44,274 nt of DNA from Chloroflexota bacterium (GTDB lineage Bacteria > Chloroflexota > Limnocylindria > Limnocylindrales > CSP1-4): NCBI GenBank assembly GCA_013694835.1, contig JACDBP010000319.1:1-44274 (forward strand). Reading direction: 5' to 3'. The stretch's first letter is position 1. Every line of letters starts with the position of its first letter. Position numbers and translations under genes: made by a program. Shown here one piece after another: positions 13,404 to 23,828 of this stretch. Below the pieces are notes generated by a model. It ran no database searches, had not been told where the DNA came from, and was given only the letters and a program-made list of their open reading frames with translations.

Positions 13404-13976
13404 TCAGTCTTCGCGCAGCTCCCAATGGAAGCGCTCCGAGCGCTCCGCCGCCGACTCGAGCTGGCTGTAGGACCCGCCGTGATAGAGAAGCGGCGGCGAA
13501 TCGCGCGGGTTGAGCCAGACTCCGTGGATGAGGCCGAGGAACAGGGAATGCGAGTACACCTCGTACGACGTCTGCACTTCGCACTCGAGGTGCGCGAGGG
13601 CCTCGGACAGCCTGGGCGTGGCGTCGCTGGGCAGTCCCGTGGCCATCCAATCCTCGCGCAGGCGTTTGTCCGATCCGGGCCGGCTGCAGTAGAGCGCTAC
13701 GTTTCGTTGCCCCACCGACAGGAGGTTGACGCCGTACCTTCCCCGAGCGGTGATCTCCGCGTGGGCGCGCGACGTACGGTTGATGGCCACCAGGAGCGAT
13801 GGGGGCGAGGCCGACAACGAGCACATCGACGTCGCGGTCATGCCGCATGCTCGACCACCACCGTCGAAATACGTCACGATCACGACCGTCGTCGCGTGCC
13901 GCCTGAACGCTTGACGGAAGAGCTGGACCTCGCTCGCGGGATCCATCTCGTTTGGGTCGTCTGAGGCTTCGGGCAT
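13404..13976 (-). CDS. Flavin reductase (HpaC/Flavin_Reduct family)
   Basis: Contains FRQAFRRHATTVVIVTY...GMTATSMCSLSASPPSLLVAI and LECEV...GDHSLF-like (SHSLFLG) motifs. I preferred ATG 13976 (190 aa) over the track GTG 14036, because it leaves an 88-nt divergent promoter region with the HpaB-like gene. Confidence 0.8.
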   Translation of the reverse strand: MPEASDDPNEMDPASEVQLFRQAFRRHATTVVIVTYFDGGGRACGMTATSMCSLSASPPSLLVAINRTSRAHAEITARGRYGVNLLSVGQRNVALYCSRPGSDKRLREDWMATGLPSDATPRLSEALAHLECEVQTSYEVYSHSLFLGLIHGVWLNPRDSPPLLYHGGSYSQLESAAERSERFHWELRED

Positions 13977-14064
13977 GTCATCCGTGGGATTCGCGCGATC
14001 CAGGCCTCGGTCGGTGGTCGCGCCCGCATTGTGCACCCTGCTCGATCGTTATTGAGGCTTCAGC

Positions 14065-15492
14065 ATGCGGCGAGGCGCTGACTACATCGCAGGCATCCGG
14101 CGCGATGGCCGGACGATCCTCCTGGACGGTGAGCCCATCGACGATGTCACCACCCATCCAGGGTTCGCAGGCCCGACCCGGGTCGTAGCGTCGCTCTACG
14201 ACGACGCGATCGGCGACGCCGAGATCGCGTACGAGGACGAGGGCCGCTCCCACAGCGCGATGTGGCTTCCGCCCAGATCCGCCGAGGATCTTGAGCGGCG
14301 ACGGATGGTCCACCGTCATTGGGCGGAGGGTTGCTTCGGCCTGATGGGGCGCACGCCAGACCACGTCGCCTCCATCATCACCGCCTTCGCTGCACGGCGG
14401 GACGTCTTCGACCGTGCGGGCACTCGCTACGGCGACAATGTCGTGTCGTTCTATCGGCAGGCGCGGGACAACGACTGGTTCGTGTCCTACGCAGTCACGC
14501 CGCCACAGGTGGATCGATCGAAGCCGGCCCACCTTCAGCCCGAACCGTTCCTGTATCCGGGCGTCGCCGAAGAGCGAGACGATGGCATCGTCATCCGCGG
14601 CGCGCAGATGATCGCCACCTCGGCCGCGATCTCCGACTACCTGTTCCTGAGCTATATCGCGCCGCTGCAGCCGGGCGACGAGGACTACGCGATCTCGGTC
14701 GTCATGCCGCTGAGCGCCGAGGGCCTCCGTCTGTACCCGCGGCGTCCGTACGCCACCATCGCGACGAGCACGTTCGACTACCCCCTCTCGGCACGCTTCG
14801 ATGAATCGGACAACCTCGTCGTGTTGCGCGATGTCTTCGTGCCGTGGGAACACGTTTTCGTCCACCGCGACATCGGGCTCGTCAATCGGCAGTTCCATGA
14901 GACGGGCGCCCATGTCCTCGCCAACTACCAGGCCCTCATCCGATTCCTCGTCAAGCTCGAGTTCGTTTCGGGCCTGGCCATCGAGCTCGCTGATGCGCAT
15001 GGCCTCTCGGCGATCCCTCCGGTCCAGGCCCAGTTGGGCGGCGATATCGCCGCCTTCTGCTCAGCGCTCGAGGCGATCGTGCTCGCGGCCCAGGCCCGTC
15101 CCCAGACACGGAACGGTCTTGTCCTTCCGGCACCTTCCTTCGTCAGCGCAGGTGTCAGCCTTCAACGGCGATGGGTCGTCGACCTCATGCGCGCTCTGCG
15201 CGAGCTCGGTGGCGGGGGGTTCATCGCGATGCCATCAGCAGACAGCTACGAGGCCGCAGAGACCGCTGAAGACGTCGAGCGCTATTACCGCTCGGCCACG
15301 CTCTCGTCGCGCGACCGGGTGCAGTTGCTCAAGCTCATGTGGGACCTGGTCGGAACGGAGTTCGCGGGGCGGCAATTGCAGTACGAGATGTTCTACTCGG
15401 CTGCCCAGCACATCGCCGACCTGCAAGTCTTCAAGTCCTTCGACTGGGAGAAGGGGCGCGTGCACGTCCGTCGATCGATGCGGCCGACCTGA
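14065..15492 (+). CDS. 4-hydroxyphenylacetate 3-monooxygenase family oxygenase component (HpaB-type, two-component FADH2-dependent)
   Basis: A 475-aa ORF. The N-terminus GADYIAGIRRDGRTILLDGEPIDDVTTHPGFAGPTRVVASLYD is the typical HpaB-family start. GAGG lies 7 nt upstream of the ATG, and the gene is divergent from a flavin reductase. Confidence 0.88.
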   Translation: MRRGADYIAGIRRDGRTILLDGEPIDDVTTHPGFAGPTRVVASLYDDAIGDAEIAYEDEGRSHSAMWLPPRSAEDLERRRMVHRHWAEGCFGLMGRTPDHVASIITAFAARRDVFDRAGTRYGDNVVSFYRQARDNDWFVSYAVTPPQVDRSKPAHLQPEPFLYPGVAEERDDGIVIRGAQMIATSAAISDYLFLSYIAPLQPGDEDYAISVVMPLSAEGLRLYPRRPYATIATSTFDYPLSARFDESDNLVVLRDVFVPWEHVFVHRDIGLVNRQFHETGAHVLANYQALIRFLVKLEFVSGLAIELADAHGLSAIPPVQAQLGGDIAAFCSALEAIVLAAQARPQTRNGLVLPAPSFVSAGVSLQRRWVVDLMRALRELGGGGFIAMPSADSYEAAETAEDVERYYRSATLSSRDRVQLLKLMWDLVGTEFAGRQLQYEMFYSAAQHIADLQVFKSFDWEKGRVHVRRSMRPT

Positions 15493-15522: not shown

Positions 15523-17301
15523 TCATTCGATAAGGGCGGACAGTTCCCGGTCGATGAGGTCGTGGACGGCGTTCTGGGCCGCGATCGGCCGGACGGTGTG
15601 ATCGCGTGCGGGCAGGTCCTCCATCACCACGTTCGGCCAGCGGTCGATCCGGGCGATGATCCCATCGCGCTCGAGCTCATGCCGAACGGCCTCGTCGCCG
15701 GAGAAGGCGACGACGACCCTCGTCCGCGAGTCGCGGAGCTGGTCGAGGGTGCGCTCGAGCTTGACGGTCTGTGGGTCTGCCCGGCGCCGATGACGCAGGC
15801 GACCGGGGATCCGAAGCAGCCCCCGCCAGGGCTGGAGCGCCATCGCTCGTCCGATCCTCAGCAGGCGTGCAGCCTTGACCTCCCCGCGCAGGATCCGCCG
15901 CCACGAGTACGGTTGCATCGCACGCCTCGCCAGGCGTGCATCACGGTGCGCTTCGAGCGCGGGATCCCACACCAGCGCTCTAGGGTTGAGGAGCACGGCC
16001 GCGACCACGCGGTCGTCCGCGGCTGCCGTGTTGAACGCCCAGTACGCGCCCGAACACAAGCCGATCAGGACGAAGCGTTGCCCGACCCCGCGTGACTCGA
16101 GCGCATCGATGATCGCTGTCACCTGCTCGCCCAGGTCTGGTGTGTAGAACCGGCCGACGTCGACGTAAACGCCAGCGTCACCGTCAGCGTCCCCGATGCC
16201 CACGAAGTCGACCCGAAGTGTGGGCACGCGTCGGGCCGCCCATCGTCGCCCCGCTTCGACCCACATCCGGTTCGGCCCGATGCGTCGTATGGCACCGGCG
16301 TTCAGGAAGATCGCGCACAGGTCGGCCCGTGGCTCGGACCACGGCTCGGCCAGGAGCCCAACGGATCCTTCGAGGGTCCCGTCGTGGCCGATGGGTGTCT
16401 CGCGGATGCGCGATCCATCAACCAGGAAGTCGCCATGGTCACCTGTGGGCGGACCAGCAGGCTTGCGTGGTGGAGCCGATGGCGAGAGGGCGGCGGGCGC
16501 GGCCTCGAGCCATGCGTTGACCCGGCCGAACACCTCGAGCGGTGGCTGATAGTGCTCCACGTTGAAGCACATCGCCCCCCAGCCCGTACCAGACCCGACG
16601 GTCACCGCGACCCCGCCACGCTCGAGCGCCGTATGGAGGCGTCCGTCGGTCGGGATGCCATCACGCGCCATGAGCATGGCCCGTTGCAGCCCTCCGAATC
16701 CTGCCTCGCCGACCTCGATCCGCTCGATCGCCGAGATCGTCTCCGCGGAGAGAACGAAGCCGCCGACCTCGAGCCATCCGTCGGGGAGAGTCGTGTCCGC
16801 AGTGCCAGTCGCGCCGTATCCCGAACTCTGGAACTTCGCGAACGCCCGCTGCTCGCGCAGAAAGGACCGTCCGCGGGCCGGTGACGCCCACAGCACGAGA
16901 TCATCGATCGGCGCGCCATCGGCGAGCGCAAGGCTGGCGATGAGGCCCCCGAGGCCGAGCCCGATCACGGCTACCCGCGCGCCCGTTGTGTCGCGTAACC
17001 AAGTCGTGGCGGCAACGATCGCCTCCGTCCATGCCCCCAGCCGAGCCGGATCGCTCGGCGAACCGGCGCTGTCGCCGGCGCCGGGCAAGTCGATCCGCAG
17101 CGAGGGGTGGCCGGTGTCGGCCAGGTGCTCCGCCCATGCTCGCCGACTGCGATACGTCGTCACCTCATCCCACCCCCACGGCGGACAGATGAGGACGGCC
17201 GTTCCGGGTGGCATGCTCGGAGACGCCCCGTGGAAGATCCCGAACAGGGGACCGGACTCGATGTTGAGGTACATCGGGCGGGCCGACGGTACGTCGATCA
17301 A
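15523..17301 (-). CDS. Tandem alpha/beta-hydrolase-fold protein (two hydrolase-like domains in one chain)
   Basis: A 592-aa ORF. Domain 1 has the elbow VAVIGLGLGGLIA, with Gly at the nucleophile position. Domain 2 has the elbow FVLIGLCSGAYWA, with Cys at the nucleophile position, followed by AFSGDEA and PARDHTV (candidate Asp and His). TTG 17301 overlaps the upstream stop as TTGA; the alternative start is ATG 17274 (MYLNIESGPLFGIFH). Confidence 0.7.
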   Translation of the reverse strand: MIDVPSARPMYLNIESGPLFGIFHGASPSMPPGTAVLICPPWGWDEVTTYRSRRAWAEHLADTGHPSLRIDLPGAGDSAGSPSDPARLGAWTEAIVAATTWLRDTTGARVAVIGLGLGGLIASLALADGAPIDDLVLWASPARGRSFLREQRAFAKFQSSGYGATGTADTTLPDGWLEVGGFVLSAETISAIERIEVGEAGFGGLQRAMLMARDGIPTDGRLHTALERGGVAVTVGSGTGWGAMCFNVEHYQPPLEVFGRVNAWLEAAPAALSPSAPPRKPAGPPTGDHGDFLVDGSRIRETPIGHDGTLEGSVGLLAEPWSEPRADLCAIFLNAGAIRRIGPNRMWVEAGRRWAARRVPTLRVDFVGIGDADGDAGVYVDVGRFYTPDLGEQVTAIIDALESRGVGQRFVLIGLCSGAYWAFNTAAADDRVVAAVLLNPRALVWDPALEAHRDARLARRAMQPYSWRRILRGEVKAARLLRIGRAMALQPWRGLLRIPGRLRHRRRADPQTVKLERTLDQLRDSRTRVVVAFSGDEAVRHELERDGIIARIDRWPNVVMEDLPARDHTVRPIAAQNAVHDLIDRELSALIE

Positions 17302-19889
17302 GGCGGCCCGCCCACGACCTCGATCGGGATCTGACCGATGAGGTTGAGCGCCGTCAGGGTCCCGCCACCGAATCGGCGCCCGTCGTCGAGAGGGTGCAGC
17401 GAGATCAGCCGCGTGCCGCCCGGCTCGACCGAGAACGCATCATCCCCGGCGGAGAAGCCGTCCACGTGGATCCGGACGCCATAGGCAAGCCGGCGGCTCC
17501 GGACCGTCAGCCGGACCGTCCCGTCCGCGGCCGACTGGGCGCTCGCCTCGAGTGCCAGGCGGTCGGGCCTCTCGACGTCGACCGGTCGACCGGCCGGGAA
17601 GCGGACTGCCTGCGAAAGCAGCTCGCGCCCGGTCTGCCCGTCTTGCTCGAGGCTCACCACGAGCACATCATGGGCGGGTGGCCCGAACCGATAGGCCCAC
17701 GACACGTCGACGAAGTGCCCGAGCAGCGTCTCGACATTCCGCACGTGTGCGCCGTGCGCGGCAACGTCGATCGTTTCCTGGCCTTCCCCGACCGGCTGCT
17801 CCAGGTCGCGATAGAGCGCCACCCGCAGGCGAGCCACGAGCGGCGTCGAGTGATCGTTCGCCACATGGACGACGACGCCGCCGAGGCCCTCATCGGTCGT
17901 CCAGACCGCTACCGGCGCGAGGGCACGGCGAAGATGGTGATAGGCGACCTTGGGCATCCCACGGTGGTCGAGGACGCCCCAACCCGCGCCCGCAGCGAGA
18001 TCGCGGAGCCACAGGACGAGCGCACCATGACACGTCGAGTCGGTCCGACGCCATTCCCCGAAGACCTCGGCCATGACCTCGCCGCTGACTGCCCGGGAGA
18101 ACTCGAGGTACCGTTCGTGGTCGATCCTGCGAAGCTCGCCCGGGTCCTGCCCGAACAGGTCGGCCAGATAGTGGTCGCGAACATCGTCGAAGTCCCAGCC
18201 GCTGCCGACGTCGCGCGGGACGCCCGCTTTCCAGCGGGGATGGTGGACAACGACCCCTGCCGCGGAATCCGGCAGTAGCGATTCGACGACCGCTTCGTCG
18301 GGTACGTTCGCGAACGCCAGGCACTCGGCGGCGAACCGGACCCCGGAGCTCCGCGCGTCGGCCAGCGGACGCCGATAGCCACCGACCCCGTAATAGTTCG
18401 CGACGCCCCGGTCCGGCCGGAACGGCTGGTCGCCTCCGAACGGCGCAGACGGCGCATAGACCGCGTCCGCCCCGGACGCACGCGACAGTGCTGGGATCGT
18501 CACGCCGAAGAAGTCGGCGCGTCCGAATGTGGGGTCGAGCCCGAGCATCGCGATCTGCTGCTCGATCTCGCTGTTGCCGCACAGCACGGCGAAGCTGGGG
18601 CGGCCGGCGAGCCGGTCGATGACGTCGGTCGCTTCAGCCTCGGCGAGCGCCCGGAACGCGTCATCCGCGAATGGGTAGTCCATGTTCGCGAACATGAGAT
18701 CCTGCCAGACAAGCACACCGAGCTCGTCGCACAGATCGTAGAAGGCGTCCTGCTCATAGGCGCCTGTGCCAGGCAAGCGGAGCATGTTCATCCCACCGTC
18801 ACGGGCGGTCTCGACCGCCGCACGAAGCGATCCTGGCGAGGGAGCGAGGCCGCGTGGGTCGACCGGAGTCCAGACCGCCCCCCGCGCGAAGATCCGCACG
18901 TCGTTCAGGTGGAGGTCGAGCCCATCGCGCTCGAGGTCGTGACCGGCCCCGGGACCCGCTGCCAGTCGTCGAAAGCCGACCCGCCCGGCGTCGATCGCGA
19001 TCGGCCCTACGTCGGTCTCGACCTTGAATCTAACGTCGTACAGGGCAGGCTCGCCGTGGGTGTGAGGCCACCACCGTCGTGCCGCTGGCACCCGCACCTC
19101 TCCCCGGAAGAGCAGTCGTTGTTCGTCGCCGGACGTGTCCAGGTATGCATGATGGGATCCCGTCTCCCCGGTCAGGACGACCCCGACCTGACGGGTCCGG
19201 CGGGCACCGATGGTCCGCACGCCAAGGCGCACCGACAGCACACCTTCGTCGCCGTCGAGTCGCGGCCGAAGGTCGATGCGCTCGACGGTGATGCCTCGCC
19301 GGCGCTCGAGCCAGACGGGCCCCCACGGGCCGACCGCAGGCGGCCCGGGCGCGAACCCTGGCGCGCGGCCGAGGAGCGTCGTTCTGATCCAGCGCAGATT
19401 GCCGTCGGCGACGAGGCGCGTCCGCCATCTGGCCCGCGGGCGGCGCGGTGCGCTCAACCTGGGTCCGAGGGCACTAAACCGGATCGCAAGCTCGTTCGCG
19501 CCGCGCAGGCGGCCGCCGATCTCGATCGCGTGGCGGACGAACATCGAATCGCTGACCACCACCTGTTCCCCATTCAGGTATACCTCGGCGATGGTCGCAA
19601 GGCCGTCGAGGAAGAGCACGACCGACTCGTCATCGTCGCCACGGGCCGCCTGGAAGTTCGTCCGGAACCACCAGTCCTGGGCGTCGAGATCAGCTGCCAT
19701 CAGACCGGCCTCGGCGAGCACCGAGGCGACCGTGCCGGGCACTCGTGCCGGAAGCCAGGTCAACCCATCGAGCTCAGCGGGGTCGGCGAACGAGTCCGGC
19801 GCAGCGGATGCGGCTACCCAACCTTCATCGAGCGGCACGACATCGTGATCCTGGACGCGGACCCGCCGTGCCAACCGTGCCGGCGGCAT
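17298..19889 (-). CDS. Glycoside hydrolase family 2-like protein (beta-mannosidase / exo-glucosaminidase type), cytoplasmic
   Basis: An 863-aa ORF. It has the sugar-binding N-domain pattern (WLPARVPGTV...DWWFRT...FLDGLATIAEVYLNG). The TIM-barrel region contains MNMLRLPGTG...VLVWQDLMF, CGNSEIE (acid/base Glu, compare GNNE) and RFAAECLAFANVP (candidate nucleophile Glu). There is no signal peptide. Confidence 0.78.
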   Translation of the reverse strand: MPPARLARRVRVQDHDVVPLDEGWVAASAAPDSFADPAELDGLTWLPARVPGTVASVLAEAGLMAADLDAQDWWFRTNFQAARGDDDESVVLFLDGLATIAEVYLNGEQVVVSDSMFVRHAIEIGGRLRGANELAIRFSALGPRLSAPRRPRARWRTRLVADGNLRWIRTTLLGRAPGFAPGPPAVGPWGPVWLERRRGITVERIDLRPRLDGDEGVLSVRLGVRTIGARRTRQVGVVLTGETGSHHAYLDTSGDEQRLLFRGEVRVPAARRWWPHTHGEPALYDVRFKVETDVGPIAIDAGRVGFRRLAAGPGAGHDLERDGLDLHLNDVRIFARGAVWTPVDPRGLAPSPGSLRAAVETARDGGMNMLRLPGTGAYEQDAFYDLCDELGVLVWQDLMFANMDYPFADDAFRALAEAEATDVIDRLAGRPSFAVLCGNSEIEQQIAMLGLDPTFGRADFFGVTIPALSRASGADAVYAPSAPFGGDQPFRPDRGVANYYGVGGYRRPLADARSSGVRFAAECLAFANVPDEAVVESLLPDSAAGVVVHHPRWKAGVPRDVGSGWDFDDVRDHYLADLFGQDPGELRRIDHERYLEFSRAVSGEVMAEVFGEWRRTDSTCHGALVLWLRDLAAGAGWGVLDHRGMPKVAYHHLRRALAPVAVWTTDEGLGGVVVHVANDHSTPLVARLRVALYRDLEQPVGEGQETIDVAAHGAHVRNVETLLGHFVDVSWAYRFGPPAHDVLVVSLEQDGQTGRELLSQAVRFPAGRPVDVERPDRLALEASAQSAADGTVRLTVRSRRLAYGVRIHVDGFSAGDDAFSVEPGGTRLISLHPLDDGRRFGGGTLTALNLIGQIPIEVVGGPP

Positions 19890-19893
19890 GGGG

Positions 19894-20859
19894 CTACCGG
19901 ACTGCGTCGTCGAGCGCGCCGAGTGCCACGTCCCACGCTTCGCTCAACGCGTCGATCGCGGCCTCGGCGTCGAATGGCCGCCGCCGAGCGAGCTTGAAGC
20001 CAAGTAGCTTGGACCCCTCGACGATCTCCGACATGGCCGTCACCGCCCGCCCGCCCTCATCGCCGAGCAGCCAGCCGACGTGCGAGGCGCACAGTTCGAA
20101 CCCGGCTCCCGCCATCCGCACGGTCGCGAATGCGTAGGCATGGAATCGAGCCACATCGCCGGCCAGCAGGTCCGGGAGGTCACGGCTCAGTCGAACGCCG
20201 AACCGGTCGAACGGATTGCCGGCATGGACCCGATCGAGGTGATGGCGCAGGATCTCGCGGGACGCTGCCCGCAGCGCGGCCCCTTCGAGGCGCGGGCCGG
20301 CATCGAAGCGGATGAGCTCCGTGTATGGGGGAAGGATCTCGTCGTCCGCGTGGTCGACCCGAAACACGCCGCGGTAGTCTTCCCCGCTCAGCTCGTGCAG
20401 TGACGTGTTGTGGAAGTAGCGGAGGCGTTGCCCGAGCAGGTCGATCGCCTCGGCGGCGACGCCGGTCTTCACGTGCTCCGTGCGATAGCTGCTCGAGGCC
20501 GTATCCGGAAGGTGCCAGGCGTCGAGCTCCACGGTGAGCGAGCGGCCATCGGCGAGAAGCTCAGCGATCTGGTCAGGCATGGACCGGTAGGGCTGCATCT
20601 CGTGGATATCGACACCGAAGAGGCGCTCGAGGTCCTCGGGGGGTGGCTTGAAGAACGTCCACTGGTCCCCTTCGAAGTCCATTCGAACGATCGAGCCGAG
20701 GCACGCCAACGGTTCGTCGCCCCGAGCGTGGAGGAGCTCGATAAGCAGGTCCGTGTAGCAGTTCGTCTCCTGGTACGTGCGTTCGGCGGCATGCAGTGGG
20801 TGCGATCGATACGTGGCCGGATCGAGCCCGAACAGGCTGACCATGCCGGACGTAGCCAT
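19894..20859 (-). CDS. Conserved hypothetical protein (I recall it as DUF1839-like; family assignment unverified)
   Basis: Corresponds to the C-terminal 321 aa of the 650-aa track ORF 19894..21846. It starts at ATG 20859 (MATSGMVSLFGLDP...), 2 nt after the ligase stop; an alternative GTG at 20865 overlaps that stop as GTGA. The upstream part of the track ORF is an alternate frame of the ligase gene. It contains YQETNCYTDLLIELLHARG near the N-terminus. Confidence 0.55.
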   Translation of the reverse strand: MATSGMVSLFGLDPATYRSHPLHAAERTYQETNCYTDLLIELLHARGDEPLACLGSIVRMDFEGDQWTFFKPPPEDLERLFGVDIHEMQPYRSMPDQIAELLADGRSLTVELDAWHLPDTASSSYRTEHVKTGVAAEAIDLLGQRLRYFHNTSLHELSGEDYRGVFRVDHADDEILPPYTELIRFDAGPRLEGAALRAASREILRHHLDRVHAGNPFDRFGVRLSRDLPDLLAGDVARFHAYAFATVRMAGAGFELCASHVGWLLGDEGGRAVTAMSEIVEGSKLLGFKLARRRPFDAEAAIDALSEAWDVALGALDDAVR

Positions 20860-20861
20860 CG

Positions 20862-21791
20862 TCACGGCCACAGCTGCCGGGTGACCGCGGCCGGCCATCG
20901 AGTGTGGTCGAGGCCGTGGCTCCGCAGGAGGCCGAGCGTGATCCGCTCGAGGCCGAACCCGAGACAGGCGGTGTGGGCTGGGCTGCCGTCGGCCATCGTG
21001 ATCCCGTACGTCCCGGCGAAGTGATCCTGGTGGTAGTTGAACGAGGCGACCGCCGTCGGCTCCGGACCGGCGATGGGGATGAGCAGTTCGAACTTGAGTT
21101 CCTGGGCTCGCTGGTTGGCAGCCAGCATCCGGCCAGCGCGGCCGAAGAACGGGTCGGCGGCCACCTCGGGGTGGGCATCCAGCCCCACACGTGTCAGGAC
21201 CTCTTCCGCTCGATCGCGCCAGCTGTTCCGCCAGAGGGCGACGGTCTCGGGCTCGCCCAGGCGGACCATCTCGCGCTGATGGAACATCTGGAGGCGCGCC
21301 GGATCGGCCGATGGTTCGTGGCGGAAGACGTAGGCGCCGCCGGCGTCGATGGCCAGGCCACCGGGCGGCAGCGGGCCGCGCCGGGCGATGGCCGGATAGA
21401 CCGGGTAGCAGGCGGCCGGCACCAGGACGAGGTCTGTCATCCGCTGGTACCCGCTCCAGTCTCCGTGACGGTGGGCGACGTCCTCTTGCTCGATGGCCTC
21501 CTGCTCGGTCCCCTCGAACGAGAAGATCGTGCCGGCCAGGTGGGGGAAGGACTTGAGGTAGCCGCTCGCCTCGAAGTGGCGACGCGGCAGGACCGGCGGA
21601 AAGCGCATCGCCTCGGCACCATCGGGTTCGGCCACCCGGCTGACGAGGCGGTCGAATGCCTCCCGGATCCGCTCGAAGCCGCCGCCACGGCCGTACACGC
21701 CAGGCTCCCCGGTCTCGATCAGCAACCCATGATCGAGGAGCTCCACGAGGAATTCGGCCTGGTCGGGAGTGGCCGCCAGGAGCCCGGCCAT
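20862..21791 (-). CDS. Amino acid--[acyl-carrier-protein] ligase (class II aaRS / atypical SerRS catalytic-core homolog without a tRNA-binding domain)
   Basis: A 309-aa ORF with class II motif 2 GGAYVFRHEPS...RLQMFHQREMV and motif 3 LGFGLERITLGLL. The Cys residues in PAACYPVYP and HTACLGFG match the Zn site of methanogen-type SerRS and aa:CP ligases. It is too short for any tRNA-binding arm, and a carrier-protein gene lies two genes upstream. Confidence 0.82.
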   Translation of the reverse strand: MAGLLAATPDQAEFLVELLDHGLLIETGEPGVYGRGGGFERIREAFDRLVSRVAEPDGAEAMRFPPVLPRRHFEASGYLKSFPHLAGTIFSFEGTEQEAIEQEDVAHRHGDWSGYQRMTDLVLVPAACYPVYPAIARRGPLPPGGLAIDAGGAYVFRHEPSADPARLQMFHQREMVRLGEPETVALWRNSWRDRAEEVLTRVGLDAHPEVAADPFFGRAGRMLAANQRAQELKFELLIPIAGPEPTAVASFNYHQDHFAGTYGITMADGSPAHTACLGFGLERITLGLLRSHGLDHTRWPAAVTRQLWP

Positions 21792-22966
21792 CAGACGTCC
21801 TTGGCGATGAGCAGCAGGAGTGCGTTCCGCTCGTGGATCCGCTCATTGGCGATCATCAGCGGAGCCGACATCGTATCCCGCAGGTGGCGCCCGACGCTGA
21901 ACGGCGTGTCGTTCTTGTAGCCCACGATGCCACCGATCGCCATGGCGCCCTGGCAGACCCGCGGTGCCTGTTCGGAGGCCGCGATCTTCAGGTTGTTGAA
22001 GCGGAGGATGCTGGCCATCGTGGATAAACGCTCTCGGTCCGGGGTGGCCGACGCTTCGGTGAAGTCTCGCAGGGCCGAGTTCACCTCTGCCCGCAGCAGC
22101 GACAACTCGCTCATGAGATGCGACAGGCGCTGCGCTGTCGGCGGGACCTGGTCGGGACGCTGCTTGGCGGAGGCCCGTACGAACGCGCGAGCCCGGTCGA
22201 ACGCGTCGGTGGCGATCCCCAGCCACAGATGCGACCACAGGAGATGGCTTACCGGTACCATCGATTCGCCCGCGACGATCGGGAAGGGCGTCGGCAGGAC
22301 CTGGTCCGTCGAGAACTCGGCCCGAACGACGAAGCCGGGCGAGGACGTCCCTCGCATGCCCAGCGGATCCCAGGTGCCGGTCTGTTCGAGCGTCATCTGG
22401 TCCTTGTGGGTCAGCACGATGACCTGGTCGCCGGGCTCGGCGTCGGGTGTGCGCCGCAGCGTCGTGAAGAGATCGTCGGCATAGAGACCGTACGACACCG
22501 TCGGCGCCTGCTTCTCGAACGTGGCGTTGCCGTCCCGGGACGGCGTGACCGCCGCGTTCGAGCGCCCGAGGTCCCCACCCGTCCCTACCTCGGACGTGAC
22601 GGAGGCGATGAGCCGCTGGTCACGGGCGACGTCGCGCAGGTATGCCTCGAACCACGGCGCATCGGCCAGGTGCCGGGTCATGCACGCGATCTGGATCTGG
22701 TGCATCGCGTAGACCATGGCGCTCGATCCGCACCGGCGACCGAGTTCGAAGCACGCCGCCGCCACCGCCTCGAACGAGATGCCGCCCCCGCCCAATTCCG
22801 TCGGGATGAGCGCCGACAAGGCCCCGTCCGCACGCAGCGCATCGAGTGCCTCGACCGGAAAACGGGCCTTCCGGTCGACGTCGTCGGCGTTCACTGCGGC
22901 GAACTCATCGGCGATCTTTCGGATCCCGTTCAGGAAGCCCGCGTCGACGTCGATCGCGACGCTCAT
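21791..22966 (-). CDS. Acyl-CoA dehydrogenase-fold flavoprotein
   Basis: A 391-aa ORF with FPVEALDALRADGALSALIPTELGGGG, ASVTSEVGTGGDLG and the C-terminal helical domain ...GGIVGYKNDTPFSVGRHLRD. The ATG at 22966 overlaps the carrier-protein stop as ATGA, and its own stop overlaps the ligase ATG (TGATG). Confidence 0.88.
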   Translation of the reverse strand: MSVAIDVDAGFLNGIRKIADEFAAVNADDVDRKARFPVEALDALRADGALSALIPTELGGGGISFEAVAAACFELGRRCGSSAMVYAMHQIQIACMTRHLADAPWFEAYLRDVARDQRLIASVTSEVGTGGDLGRSNAAVTPSRDGNATFEKQAPTVSYGLYADDLFTTLRRTPDAEPGDQVIVLTHKDQMTLEQTGTWDPLGMRGTSSPGFVVRAEFSTDQVLPTPFPIVAGESMVPVSHLLWSHLWLGIATDAFDRARAFVRASAKQRPDQVPPTAQRLSHLMSELSLLRAEVNSALRDFTEASATPDRERLSTMASILRFNNLKIAASEQAPRVCQGAMAIGGIVGYKNDTPFSVGRHLRDTMSAPLMIANERIHERNALLLLIAKDV

Positions 22967-23208
22967 GCCGCCGACACCTGGAGCCTCTCGAGCGCGTCGG
23001 TGATCGAGGCGACGCTCTGAAAGACACTCCGCTTCAGCATGGCGTCGGGAAACTCGATGTCGAACTCAGCCTCCAGGGCGAGCATGAGGTTGACGCTCGC
23101 ATGCGAGGTCATGCCAGCCTGATAGAGGTCGGCGTGATCTTCCAACGCCTGGATGTCGGTCGGCAGCCGGCCGTGTTGAAGGATGATGTGCCGGACTCGT
23201 TCACCCAT
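22963..23208 (-). CDS. Acyl/aminoacyl carrier protein (81 aa)
   Basis: The sequence DLYQAGMTSHASVNLMLALEAEFDIEFPD is a carrier-protein helix II region. Starting at ATG 23208 puts the candidate phosphopantetheine Ser at residue 35, as in canonical ACPs. The longer starts at 23244 or 23328 would add an N-terminal leader. Confidence 0.78.
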   Translation of the reverse strand: MGERVRHIILQHGRLPTDIQALEDHADLYQAGMTSHASVNLMLALEAEFDIEFPDAMLKRSVFQSVASITDALERLQVSAA

Positions 23209-23414: not shown

Positions 23415-23828
23415 ATGGTCATCCACGTGGGGCTCGATCTCGTGTCCGTCGCCGAGGTCGCGGATGCACTCGTCGCTCTCCACGGCCACCGGTACCTGAC
23501 CCGGGTCTACACCGAGCGCGAGATCGCGGACTGCCGGACGTCCGCCGGTGTCGACCCAAGAAGGCTGGCGGCCCGGTTCGCGGCAAAGGAGGCGACCCTG
23601 AAGGCCCTGGGCACGGCTGACGATGCGGTCTCCCTGCGCGATATCGAAGTCCAGCGGGAACCGTCTGGACGGGTCCGCTTGGTGCTGCGCGGGGGGGCGG
23701 CTGAACTGGCTGCCGAGGCCGGAGTCGTCGAGCTGGCACTGAGCCTCACCCATGAGGGCGGATACGCCGCGGCGATCGTCGTCGCAGAATACGGGCGGAC
23801 CGCCACCGACGGCGCGGTCCAGCCATGA
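23415..23828 (+). CDS. acpS: Holo-[acyl-carrier-protein] synthase (AcpS-type 4'-phosphopantetheinyl transferase)
   Basis: Starts at the internal ATG (23415) of track ORF 23346..23828. The product contains MVIHVGLDLVSVAEV..., FAAKEATLKALG and LSLTHEGGYAAAIVVAE, the typical AcpS pattern. TTGACA at 23380-23385 lies 29 nt upstream. Confidence 0.85.
   Translation: MVIHVGLDLVSVAEVADALVALHGHRYLTRVYTEREIADCRTSAGVDPRRLAARFAAKEATLKALGTADDAVSLRDIEVQREPSGRVRLVLRGGAAELAAEAGVVELALSLTHEGGYAAAIVVAEYGRTATDGAVQP

Follow-up and report, generated by a model that had tools for sequence, protein, structure and literature searches.

Amino acid:carrier-protein ligases, in the account given by Mocibob in 2010, reportedly attach Gly or Ala to their dedicated carrier proteins. 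The biological role of this aminoacylation is still described as unknown in a 2022 review (PMC9437257). A conserved gene neighbourhood has been noted around these ligases, comprising a carrier protein, the ligase itself, which resembles an aminoacyl-tRNA synthetase (aaRS), a redox enzyme, a conserved uncharacterised open reading frame (ORF), and a glycosidase, and, as predicted in 2010, DUF1839 would create an amide bond with an amino sugar of the cell surface (PMC2922099). DUF1839 has been assigned a papain-like fold with a Cys-based triad (PMC10318531). In the exosortase A system, two types of hydrolases of uncharacterised function, hydr2_PEP (TIGR03101) and hydr1_PEP (TIGR03100), occur as pairs that accompany a carrier protein and an acyl-CoA-ligase-type activating enzyme. 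The sole literature mention of TIGR03100 that we found concerns Bcam1334 from the Bep exopolysaccharide cluster of Burkholderia cenocepacia, a TIGR03100-like protein for which a polysaccharide hydrolase function has been suggested (PMC3584217). We analyzed a 44,274-nt stretch of Chloroflexota DNA, hereafter the window, in which the minus-strand ORF at positions 15523-17301 encodes a tandem alpha/beta-hydrolase related to both of these hydrolase types and is the last gene of an amino acid:carrier-protein ligase operon. The N-terminal domain of this protein is devoid of the canonical nucleophile, and the C-terminal domain carries an invariant Cys at the corresponding position.

The ORF runs from a TTG start to a TGA stop and comprises 592 residues. 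The G+C content at third codon positions (GC3) stays between 0.68 and 0.86 along the whole frame, and a single coding frame can therefore be assigned. A gene caller places the start at Met10, yielding 583 residues; homologues nonetheless align from residue 1. By sequence inspection, the N-terminus contains neither a signal peptide nor a membrane segment, and the protein is a cytoplasmic tandem alpha/beta-hydrolase. Pfam analysis reports hits above threshold in both halves, with Hydrolase_4 (40.1 bits for a threshold of 27) and Abhydrolase_1 (36.1 bits for 25.8) on residues 54-145, and Abhydrolase_6 (37.4 bits for 26.3) on residues 354-568. The AlphaFold2 (AF2) model of the whole protein, computed with 60 homologues, displays the strand-helix pattern of the fold twice (mean predicted local distance difference test score, pLDDT, 86.3; predicted template modelling score, pTM, 0.87), and the C-terminal domain modelled separately reaches a pLDDT of 88.5. 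Foldseek analysis of both models returns feruloyl esterases, PET46, and TTL lipase with a probability of 1.00. Feruloyl and cinnamoyl esterases, PET46, and TTL lipase (PDB 7z2v, 3pfb, 8b4u, 7q4j, 7wwh) are the closest structural and sequence neighbours of both domains, with which they have the core fold and the elbow register in common. However, they are single-domain serine hydrolases exhibiting 12-19% identity, and the Arg-rich helical cap inserted in the C-terminal domain of the present protein is different. The original prediction of two alpha/beta-hydrolase domains within one ORF is thus borne out by the single frame, the profile scans, and the structure predictions, both halves adopting this fold.

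The motifs on which that prediction relied were located in the translation (VIGLGLGGLIA, residues 112-122; LIGLCSGAYWA, residues 412-422; AFSGDEA, residues 532-538; PARDHTV, residues 564-570), and the key codons were checked. By the family profile, the first elbow (viGlGlgGL) is matched to the G-F-S-L-G-G segment of solved esterases (PDB 9pir, 9pid, and 9pic; E-value 2.5e-14), which places Gly116 at the position of the catalytic Ser. In the C-terminal domain, LIGLCSGAY aligns with LLGLSMGG (7wwh), VIGISLGG (7qjm), and VIGLSMGG (9pjb), so that Cys416 takes the place of the nucleophilic Ser. BLASTP comparison of the two halves also sets G116 opposite C416, and no Ser occupies the nucleophile position of either elbow. 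In the AF2 model, Cys416 follows the beta5 strand (residues 409-415), Asp536 and Glu537 follow beta7 (residues 528-534), and His568 follows beta8 (residues 558-563). Cys416, Glu537, and His568 therefore fall on the canonical triad loops, and the modelled C-terminal domain likely carries a Cys416-His568-Glu537 triad.

Conservation was assessed in 215 full-length fused homologues, ranging from ~60% identity to distant sequences at 25-32%, and including three proteobacterial ones. Cys416 and His568 are both retained in all 215, and position 116 is Gly in 208, Arg in three, Glu in two, and Ala in one, but never Ser or Cys, which makes the elbow pattern unlikely to have arisen by chance. The Gly and Cys assignments of the original prediction are accordingly upheld, and so is its candidate His. 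Its candidate acid does lie within the AFSGDEA segment, but Glu537 (Glu in 202 and Asp in 10 sequences, hence acidic in 212/215) is a likelier triad member than Asp536, an Asp in only 127/215. A conserved His is likewise missing from the N-terminal domain, where Gly240 and a Trp or Tyr at 241 occupy the loop following the beta8 strand, and His247 of many homologues is replaced by Asn in the present protein. This domain is nonetheless as conserved as its partner (mean top-residue frequency of 0.62 versus 0.65, and 21 versus 23 positions conserved at 95% or more), and, judging from the alignment, it is therefore a constrained non-canonical domain rather than a decaying sequence. The elbow Cys extends beyond the fused proteins, since it is found in 119/119 distant hydr1-like proteins having this region aligned, mostly as G-x-C-S-G-A-Y and including stand-alone proteins of 270-312 residues; as far as these sequences indicate, it is a hallmark of the whole hydr1-like clade. 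In the Azospirillum (L085), Burkholderia (L088), and Variovorax (L087) relatives, the dead first elbow carries an Arg (e.g., G-L-R-L-G-A) where Gly is found here, and this Arg in a former active site might hold an anionic group.

The relationship of the two domains to the exosortase A hydrolases is specific but remote. The N-terminal half scores 68.5 bits with TIGR03101 versus 24.3 bits with TIGR03100, and the C-terminal half scores 56.7 bits with TIGR03100 and does not match TIGR03101, these best matches covering nearly the full model length. The whole protein reaches 79 bits with TIGR03101 and 77.6 bits with TIGR03100, against curated cut-offs of 202.75 and 168.45 bits, respectively, and the Azospirillum orthologue, at 92.8 and 110.7 bits, also stays far below them. 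The fused proteins are therefore relatives, and not members, of the two families. The proposal of a fused hydrolase pair stands in that the halves specifically resemble TIGR03101 and TIGR03100, bringing hydr2 and hydr1 together, but not as regards family membership. Compared with the exosortase A hydrolases, the pair is here a single polypeptide, its scores of 57-79 bits contrast with cut-offs of 168 and 203 bits, and activation falls to an aaRS-like ligase of class II instead of an enzyme of the acyl-CoA-ligase type. Furthermore, exosortase A (XrtA, TIGR03109) was not found anywhere in the assembly, which is 66% complete, and we therefore do not consider the hydrolase to belong to an exosortase A system. 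The anticipated exosortase A context thus gives way to an amino acid:carrier-protein ligase operon. The predicted link with a carrier protein and the enzyme that loads it does agree with the operon and with synteny, the carrier protein being present as expected and the activator being of the aaRS-like type rather than an acyl-activating enzyme.

A split version of the pair is encoded by Variovorax paradoxus, in which two separate, overlapping genes specify a 272-residue hydr2-like protein with a GARLG elbow followed by a 314-residue hydr1-like protein with a GMCSG elbow and a downstream D-H motif. The gene order and the elbow types, non-nucleophile and then Cys, are those of the fusion. At the sequence level, this split pair supports the idea of a fused pair, and it does not imply a direction, fusion or fission. 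Among the split candidates, only the Variovorax pair looks real. The stand-alone C-terminal domain proteins P0122 and P0199, from long contigs of metagenome-assembled genomes (MAGs), were rejected since they derive from fused genes broken by frameshifts in long-read assemblies, and P0428 and P0423 are doubtful, the GH2 gene of their loci being also called in pieces. In three long-read soil MAGs (L083:4569-8927, L084:6915-8873, L095:4579-8939), the GH2 and hydrolase genes lie in pieces in different frames, probably as a result of assembly frameshifts, and gene callers consequently report false stand-alone halves. A search of the representative library yielded 384 proteins at E<=1e-30; all 150 matches listed belong to the fused family, and no genuine TIGR03100 or TIGR03101 member was among them. 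Likewise, a tblastn search of plasmids and four plasmid records yielded nothing above the cut-off of either family, and ten stand-alone hydr1-like proteins score 67-106 bits.

The hydrolase gene is the last of six minus-strand genes, preceded by those encoding the carrier protein, an ACAD-like flavoprotein, the ligase, DUF1839, and a GH2-like protein (Table 1). All components of the published neighbourhood of these ligases are matched here, and a single PP-binding ORF is present in the operon. The TTG start of the hydrolase shares the TTGA sequence at positions 17298-17301 with the stop codon (TGA) of the GH2-like gene upstream, and this overlap, along with others in the operon, suggests that translation may be coupled. 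A sequence search of DUF1839 against the PDB did not return any match. Adjoining the operon, at positions 13404-15492 of the window, are an HpaB-type oxygenase gene and a flavin reductase gene, found near the hydrolase in 13/80 and 23/80 related loci, respectively; they are possible tailoring genes or mere conserved neighbours.

The linkage was analyzed in 80 loci from named assemblies, mostly of Chloroflexota, Solirubrobacterales, and Dormibacterota MAGs. The carrier protein, ACAD-like, ligase, DUF1839, and GH2 genes lie beside the hydrolase in 66-69 of these, and most of the remaining loci are on cut-short contigs. Agrobacterium tumefaciens C58 also carries the operon. The same six-gene operon occurs in Azospirillum brasilense Sp7 p2 (AMK58_RS22570-22595), with the hydrolase (WP_059399488.1) in last position, and the same six genes are found on a Phyllobacterium plasmid, where the hydrolase (WP_188342424.1) is convergent on the opposite strand. 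Both proteins keep the two-domain build as well as the Cys, the His, and the acid. The Azospirillum protein differs by its ~32% identity and by the Arg (G-L-R-L-G-A) that replaces Gly in its first elbow, and it is annotated only as an alpha/beta fold hydrolase and unstudied. In five variant loci (L066, L069, L072, L079, L082), the hydrolase is accompanied by the ligase, the carrier protein, and an ACAD-like protein, without DUF1839 or GH2. This variant cluster is found in Solirubrobacterales. At L072:6897-17144, the locus analyzed in detail, the hydrolase gene faces genes for the ligase, the carrier protein, proteins of the ATP-grasp and ACAD-like types, and a TetR regulator, with a GT2 gene nearby. 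Among the sampled Chloroflexota, the gene is found in 2/151 genomes, including the present one, a patchy spread that fits an accessory operon.

Table 1. Coordinates, in the window, of the hydrolase gene, its domains and predicted active-site elements, and the associated operon genes.
Feature	Positions	Strand	Evidence
Whole gene, tandem alpha/beta-hydrolase	15523..17301	-	ORF, Pfam/NCBIfam scans, GC3, AF2
N-terminal domain, residues 1-270, hydr2_PEP-like, without canonical nucleophile or His	16492..17301	-	TIGR03101 score, PDB profile alignment
Elbow 1, G-L-G-L-G-G, residues 114-119 (Gly116 at 16954-16956)	16945..16962	-	Profile and half-versus-half alignment, conservation
Interdomain linker, residues 271-296, Pro/Ala-rich, poorly conserved, pLDDT down to ~50	16414..16491	-	AF2, conservation
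C-terminal domain, residues 297-592, hydr1_PEP-like, predicted catalytic	15526..16413	-	TIGR03100 score, AF2 pLDDT, Foldseek
Elbow 2, G-L-C-S-G, residues 414-418 (Cys416 codon 16054-16056)	16048..16062	-	Aligned to Ser of 7wwh, 9pjb, 7qjm
C-terminal domain helical cap, Arg-rich, residues 447-524	15730..15963	-	AF2; 21 K+R versus 7 D+E
Asp536-Glu537 after strand beta7; Glu537 likely triad acid	15691..15696	-	Conservation, AF2 placement
Asp567-His568 after strand beta8; His568 likely triad base	15598..15603	-	Conservation, AF2 placement
GH2-like gene, stop overlapping hydrolase start	17298..19889	-	
DUF1839, papain-like	19894..20859	-	PMC10318531 for papain-like
Amino acid--[acyl-carrier-protein] ligase	20862..21791	-	NF005479, 409.9 bits (cut-off 357)
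ACAD-fold (ACAD-like) flavoprotein	21791..22966	-	
Carrier protein	22963..23208	-	PP-binding, 29 bits (cut-off 20.8)
AcpS-type phosphopantetheinyl transferase, divergent, upstream of operon	23415..23828	+	

Relatives are also found in other settings. In a Shinella exopolysaccharide (EPS) locus, the fused hydrolase accompanies genes for an acyl carrier protein and for an adenylate-forming enzyme of class I. The split pair of Variovorax paradoxus VAI-C (L087:1-10762) directly follows two nonribosomal peptide synthetase (NRPS) genes and a phosphopantetheinyl transferase (PPTase) gene, and is followed by genes for polysaccharide export, tyrosine kinase, and sugar transferase proteins. On plasmid p3 of Rhizobium sp. 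NLR16a (L086:8339-11650), the double hydrolase is preceded by an N-terminal Polysacc_synt_3 flippase-type domain within a protein of 1103 residues; this fusion is located inside an amino acid:carrier-protein ligase cluster with two GT4 genes. Two other double hydrolases are extended at their C-terminus, P0347 by a 4'-phosphopantetheinyl transferase domain and P0257 by an ATP-grasp domain. From the Shinella, Variovorax, Rhizobium, and fusion cases, the shared partners appear to be a carrier protein with some loading enzyme, together with polysaccharide genes.

Several enzymes provide a mechanistic precedent for acting on a loaded carrier protein. CmaE and SyrC possess an active-site Cys in an alpha/beta fold. 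CmaE, SyrC, and CysB shuttle aminoacyl groups off carrier domains, and CouN7 hands a carrier-bound acyl group to a free-standing substrate (PMC8748450, PMC7966384). By analogy, the present protein might take an acyl group from a carrier thioester via a covalent enzyme intermediate as these enzymes do, although they are single-domain proteins, which carry their load from one carrier domain to another or to an antibiotic scaffold. A shuttle of the CmaE/SyrC type needs both a donor and an acceptor carrier domain, while the operon has only one, and the likeness to these enzymes is drawn from mechanism and not from sequence. The reading that we favour, with roughly even confidence and from sequence and gene context, is that of a Cys-thioester acyltransferase, or possibly a thioesterase, acting on the loaded carrier protein of the operon. 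A carrier-protein substrate is proposed because the triad Cys and His are invariant and its acid nearly so, because the gene is linked to those of a carrier protein and its ligase, in the five variant loci as well, because relatives accompany other loading enzymes, and because PPTase, ATP-grasp, and flippase fusions exist; the overlap of its start with the GH2-like gene points the same way. Cys416 of the C-terminal domain would attack the phosphopantetheine thioester of the loaded carrier protein, whose cargo would be an aminoacyl group, possibly altered beforehand by the ACAD-like flavoprotein, and this attack would yield a Cys416 thioester acyl-enzyme. The acyl group would then pass on, most likely to a hydroxyl or an amine carried by a sugar or by a glycan unit linked to lipid on the inner side of the membrane; alternatively, water would accept it. 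The N-terminal domain is probably an obligatory non-catalytic partner that would bind the carrier protein or the acceptor; we infer these roles, as well as the substrate, intermediate, and acceptor, from context. The C-terminal domain cap, which is positively charged throughout the family and modelled with low confidence, has a net charge of +14 here (family median +9), versus -6 for the operon carrier protein. It could serve as a dock for the acidic carrier protein, the membrane, or a pyrophosphate-linked sugar; its basic character fits docking of the carrier protein and is no proof of it.

Several observations weigh against this acyltransferase reading. The Foldseek neighbours of the protein are ordinary serine esterases. 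A fused copy in an EPS cluster of Burkholderia arboris has no carrier protein within 9 kb. This protein of 602 residues, with GLRLG and GICSG elbows and the conserved D-H, matches the Bep cluster, but its locus differs from the present one in having no ligase, DUF1839, or GH2 either within this distance, and it adjoins Acyl_transf_3 and GT1 genes. Lastly, the operon encodes a second candidate transferase, the papain-like DUF1839, itself the predicted amide-forming enzyme (PMC2922099), and if it fulfils this task, the hydrolase could be left with an editing or hydrolytic role only.

The latter possibility leads to an alternative that we regard as unlikely, in which DUF1839 performs the productive transfer and the Cys domain is an editing or release thioesterase that hydrolyses mis-loaded or stalled groups, or the finished product. 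The Cys-based triad of DUF1839 and its predicted amide-ligase function in the system suit this scheme, and so does the location of the hydrolase at the end of the operon, a common place for accessory enzymes. To our knowledge, type II thioesterases use a Ser nucleophile. Here, the nucleophile is a Cys and never a Ser in both alignments (215/215 and 119/119), which is unexpected for a plain hydrolase, and the protein does not match the type II thioesterase family (PF00975) in Pfam at E-values up to 10, so membership of that family was rejected. Moreover, the five variant loci keep the hydrolase with the ligase and the carrier protein in the absence of DUF1839 and GH2. It is less probable still that the protein acts on glycans as an esterase or deacylase, or on a small molecule in the manner of a dienelactone hydrolase, making no contact with the carrier protein and merely co-located with polysaccharide genes. 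Fused relatives do occur in EPS clusters in which no carrier protein lies nearby, as in B. arboris, the function suggested for Bcam1334 is of this kind, and there is a weak hit with the dienelactone hydrolase family (PF01738). This hit, however, reaches 20.4 bits for a cut-off of 21 bits and covers only residues 393-438 around the elbow, so that membership was not retained. A secreted polymer would be out of reach of a protein having no signal peptide or membrane segment, the linkage to the carrier protein and ligase genes is far tighter than that to any polysaccharide gene, and a relative fused to a PPTase exists. Finally, polyhydroxyalkanoate (PHA) synthases act on thioesters by means of a triad of Cys, His, and acid set in an alpha/beta fold, and the confidently modelled two-domain pseudo-dimer could mimic a PhaC dimer whose Cys domain builds an oligomer from carrier-bound units, but this is hardly credible given that a nucleophile is present in one domain only, that neither Pfam nor NCBIfam reports a PhaC family match, and that the top 50 Foldseek matches of either model include no PhaC structure, PhaC membership being rejected on these last two grounds.

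The operon and both hydrolase families are already known computationally, and we found no paper describing the fusion, the Cys conserved throughout it, or the inactive domain that partners it. The present analysis adds that a two-domain hydrolase with an invariant Cys accompanies the ligase and the carrier protein almost without exception. Cys416 and its predicted acyl-enzyme offer a concrete handle on the role of amino acid:carrier-protein ligases, and the hydrolase 1 and hydrolase 2 families may consist of a cysteine enzyme and its obligatory dead partner. Relatives fused to a flippase or a PPTase, the variant loci, and the Variovorax pair encoded by separate genes lend added support to the favoured reading. 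More tentatively, and rather doubtfully at this stage, the hydr2-hydr1 module, fused or split, could represent a general and so far unrecognised class of Cys-dependent transferases, which would transfer aminoacyl or acyl groups activated on a carrier protein to lipid-linked polysaccharide units, with interchangeable loading enzymes of the aaRS-like, ANL, or NRPS types. If true, this general-transferase reading would supply the missing function of amino acid:carrier-protein ligases.

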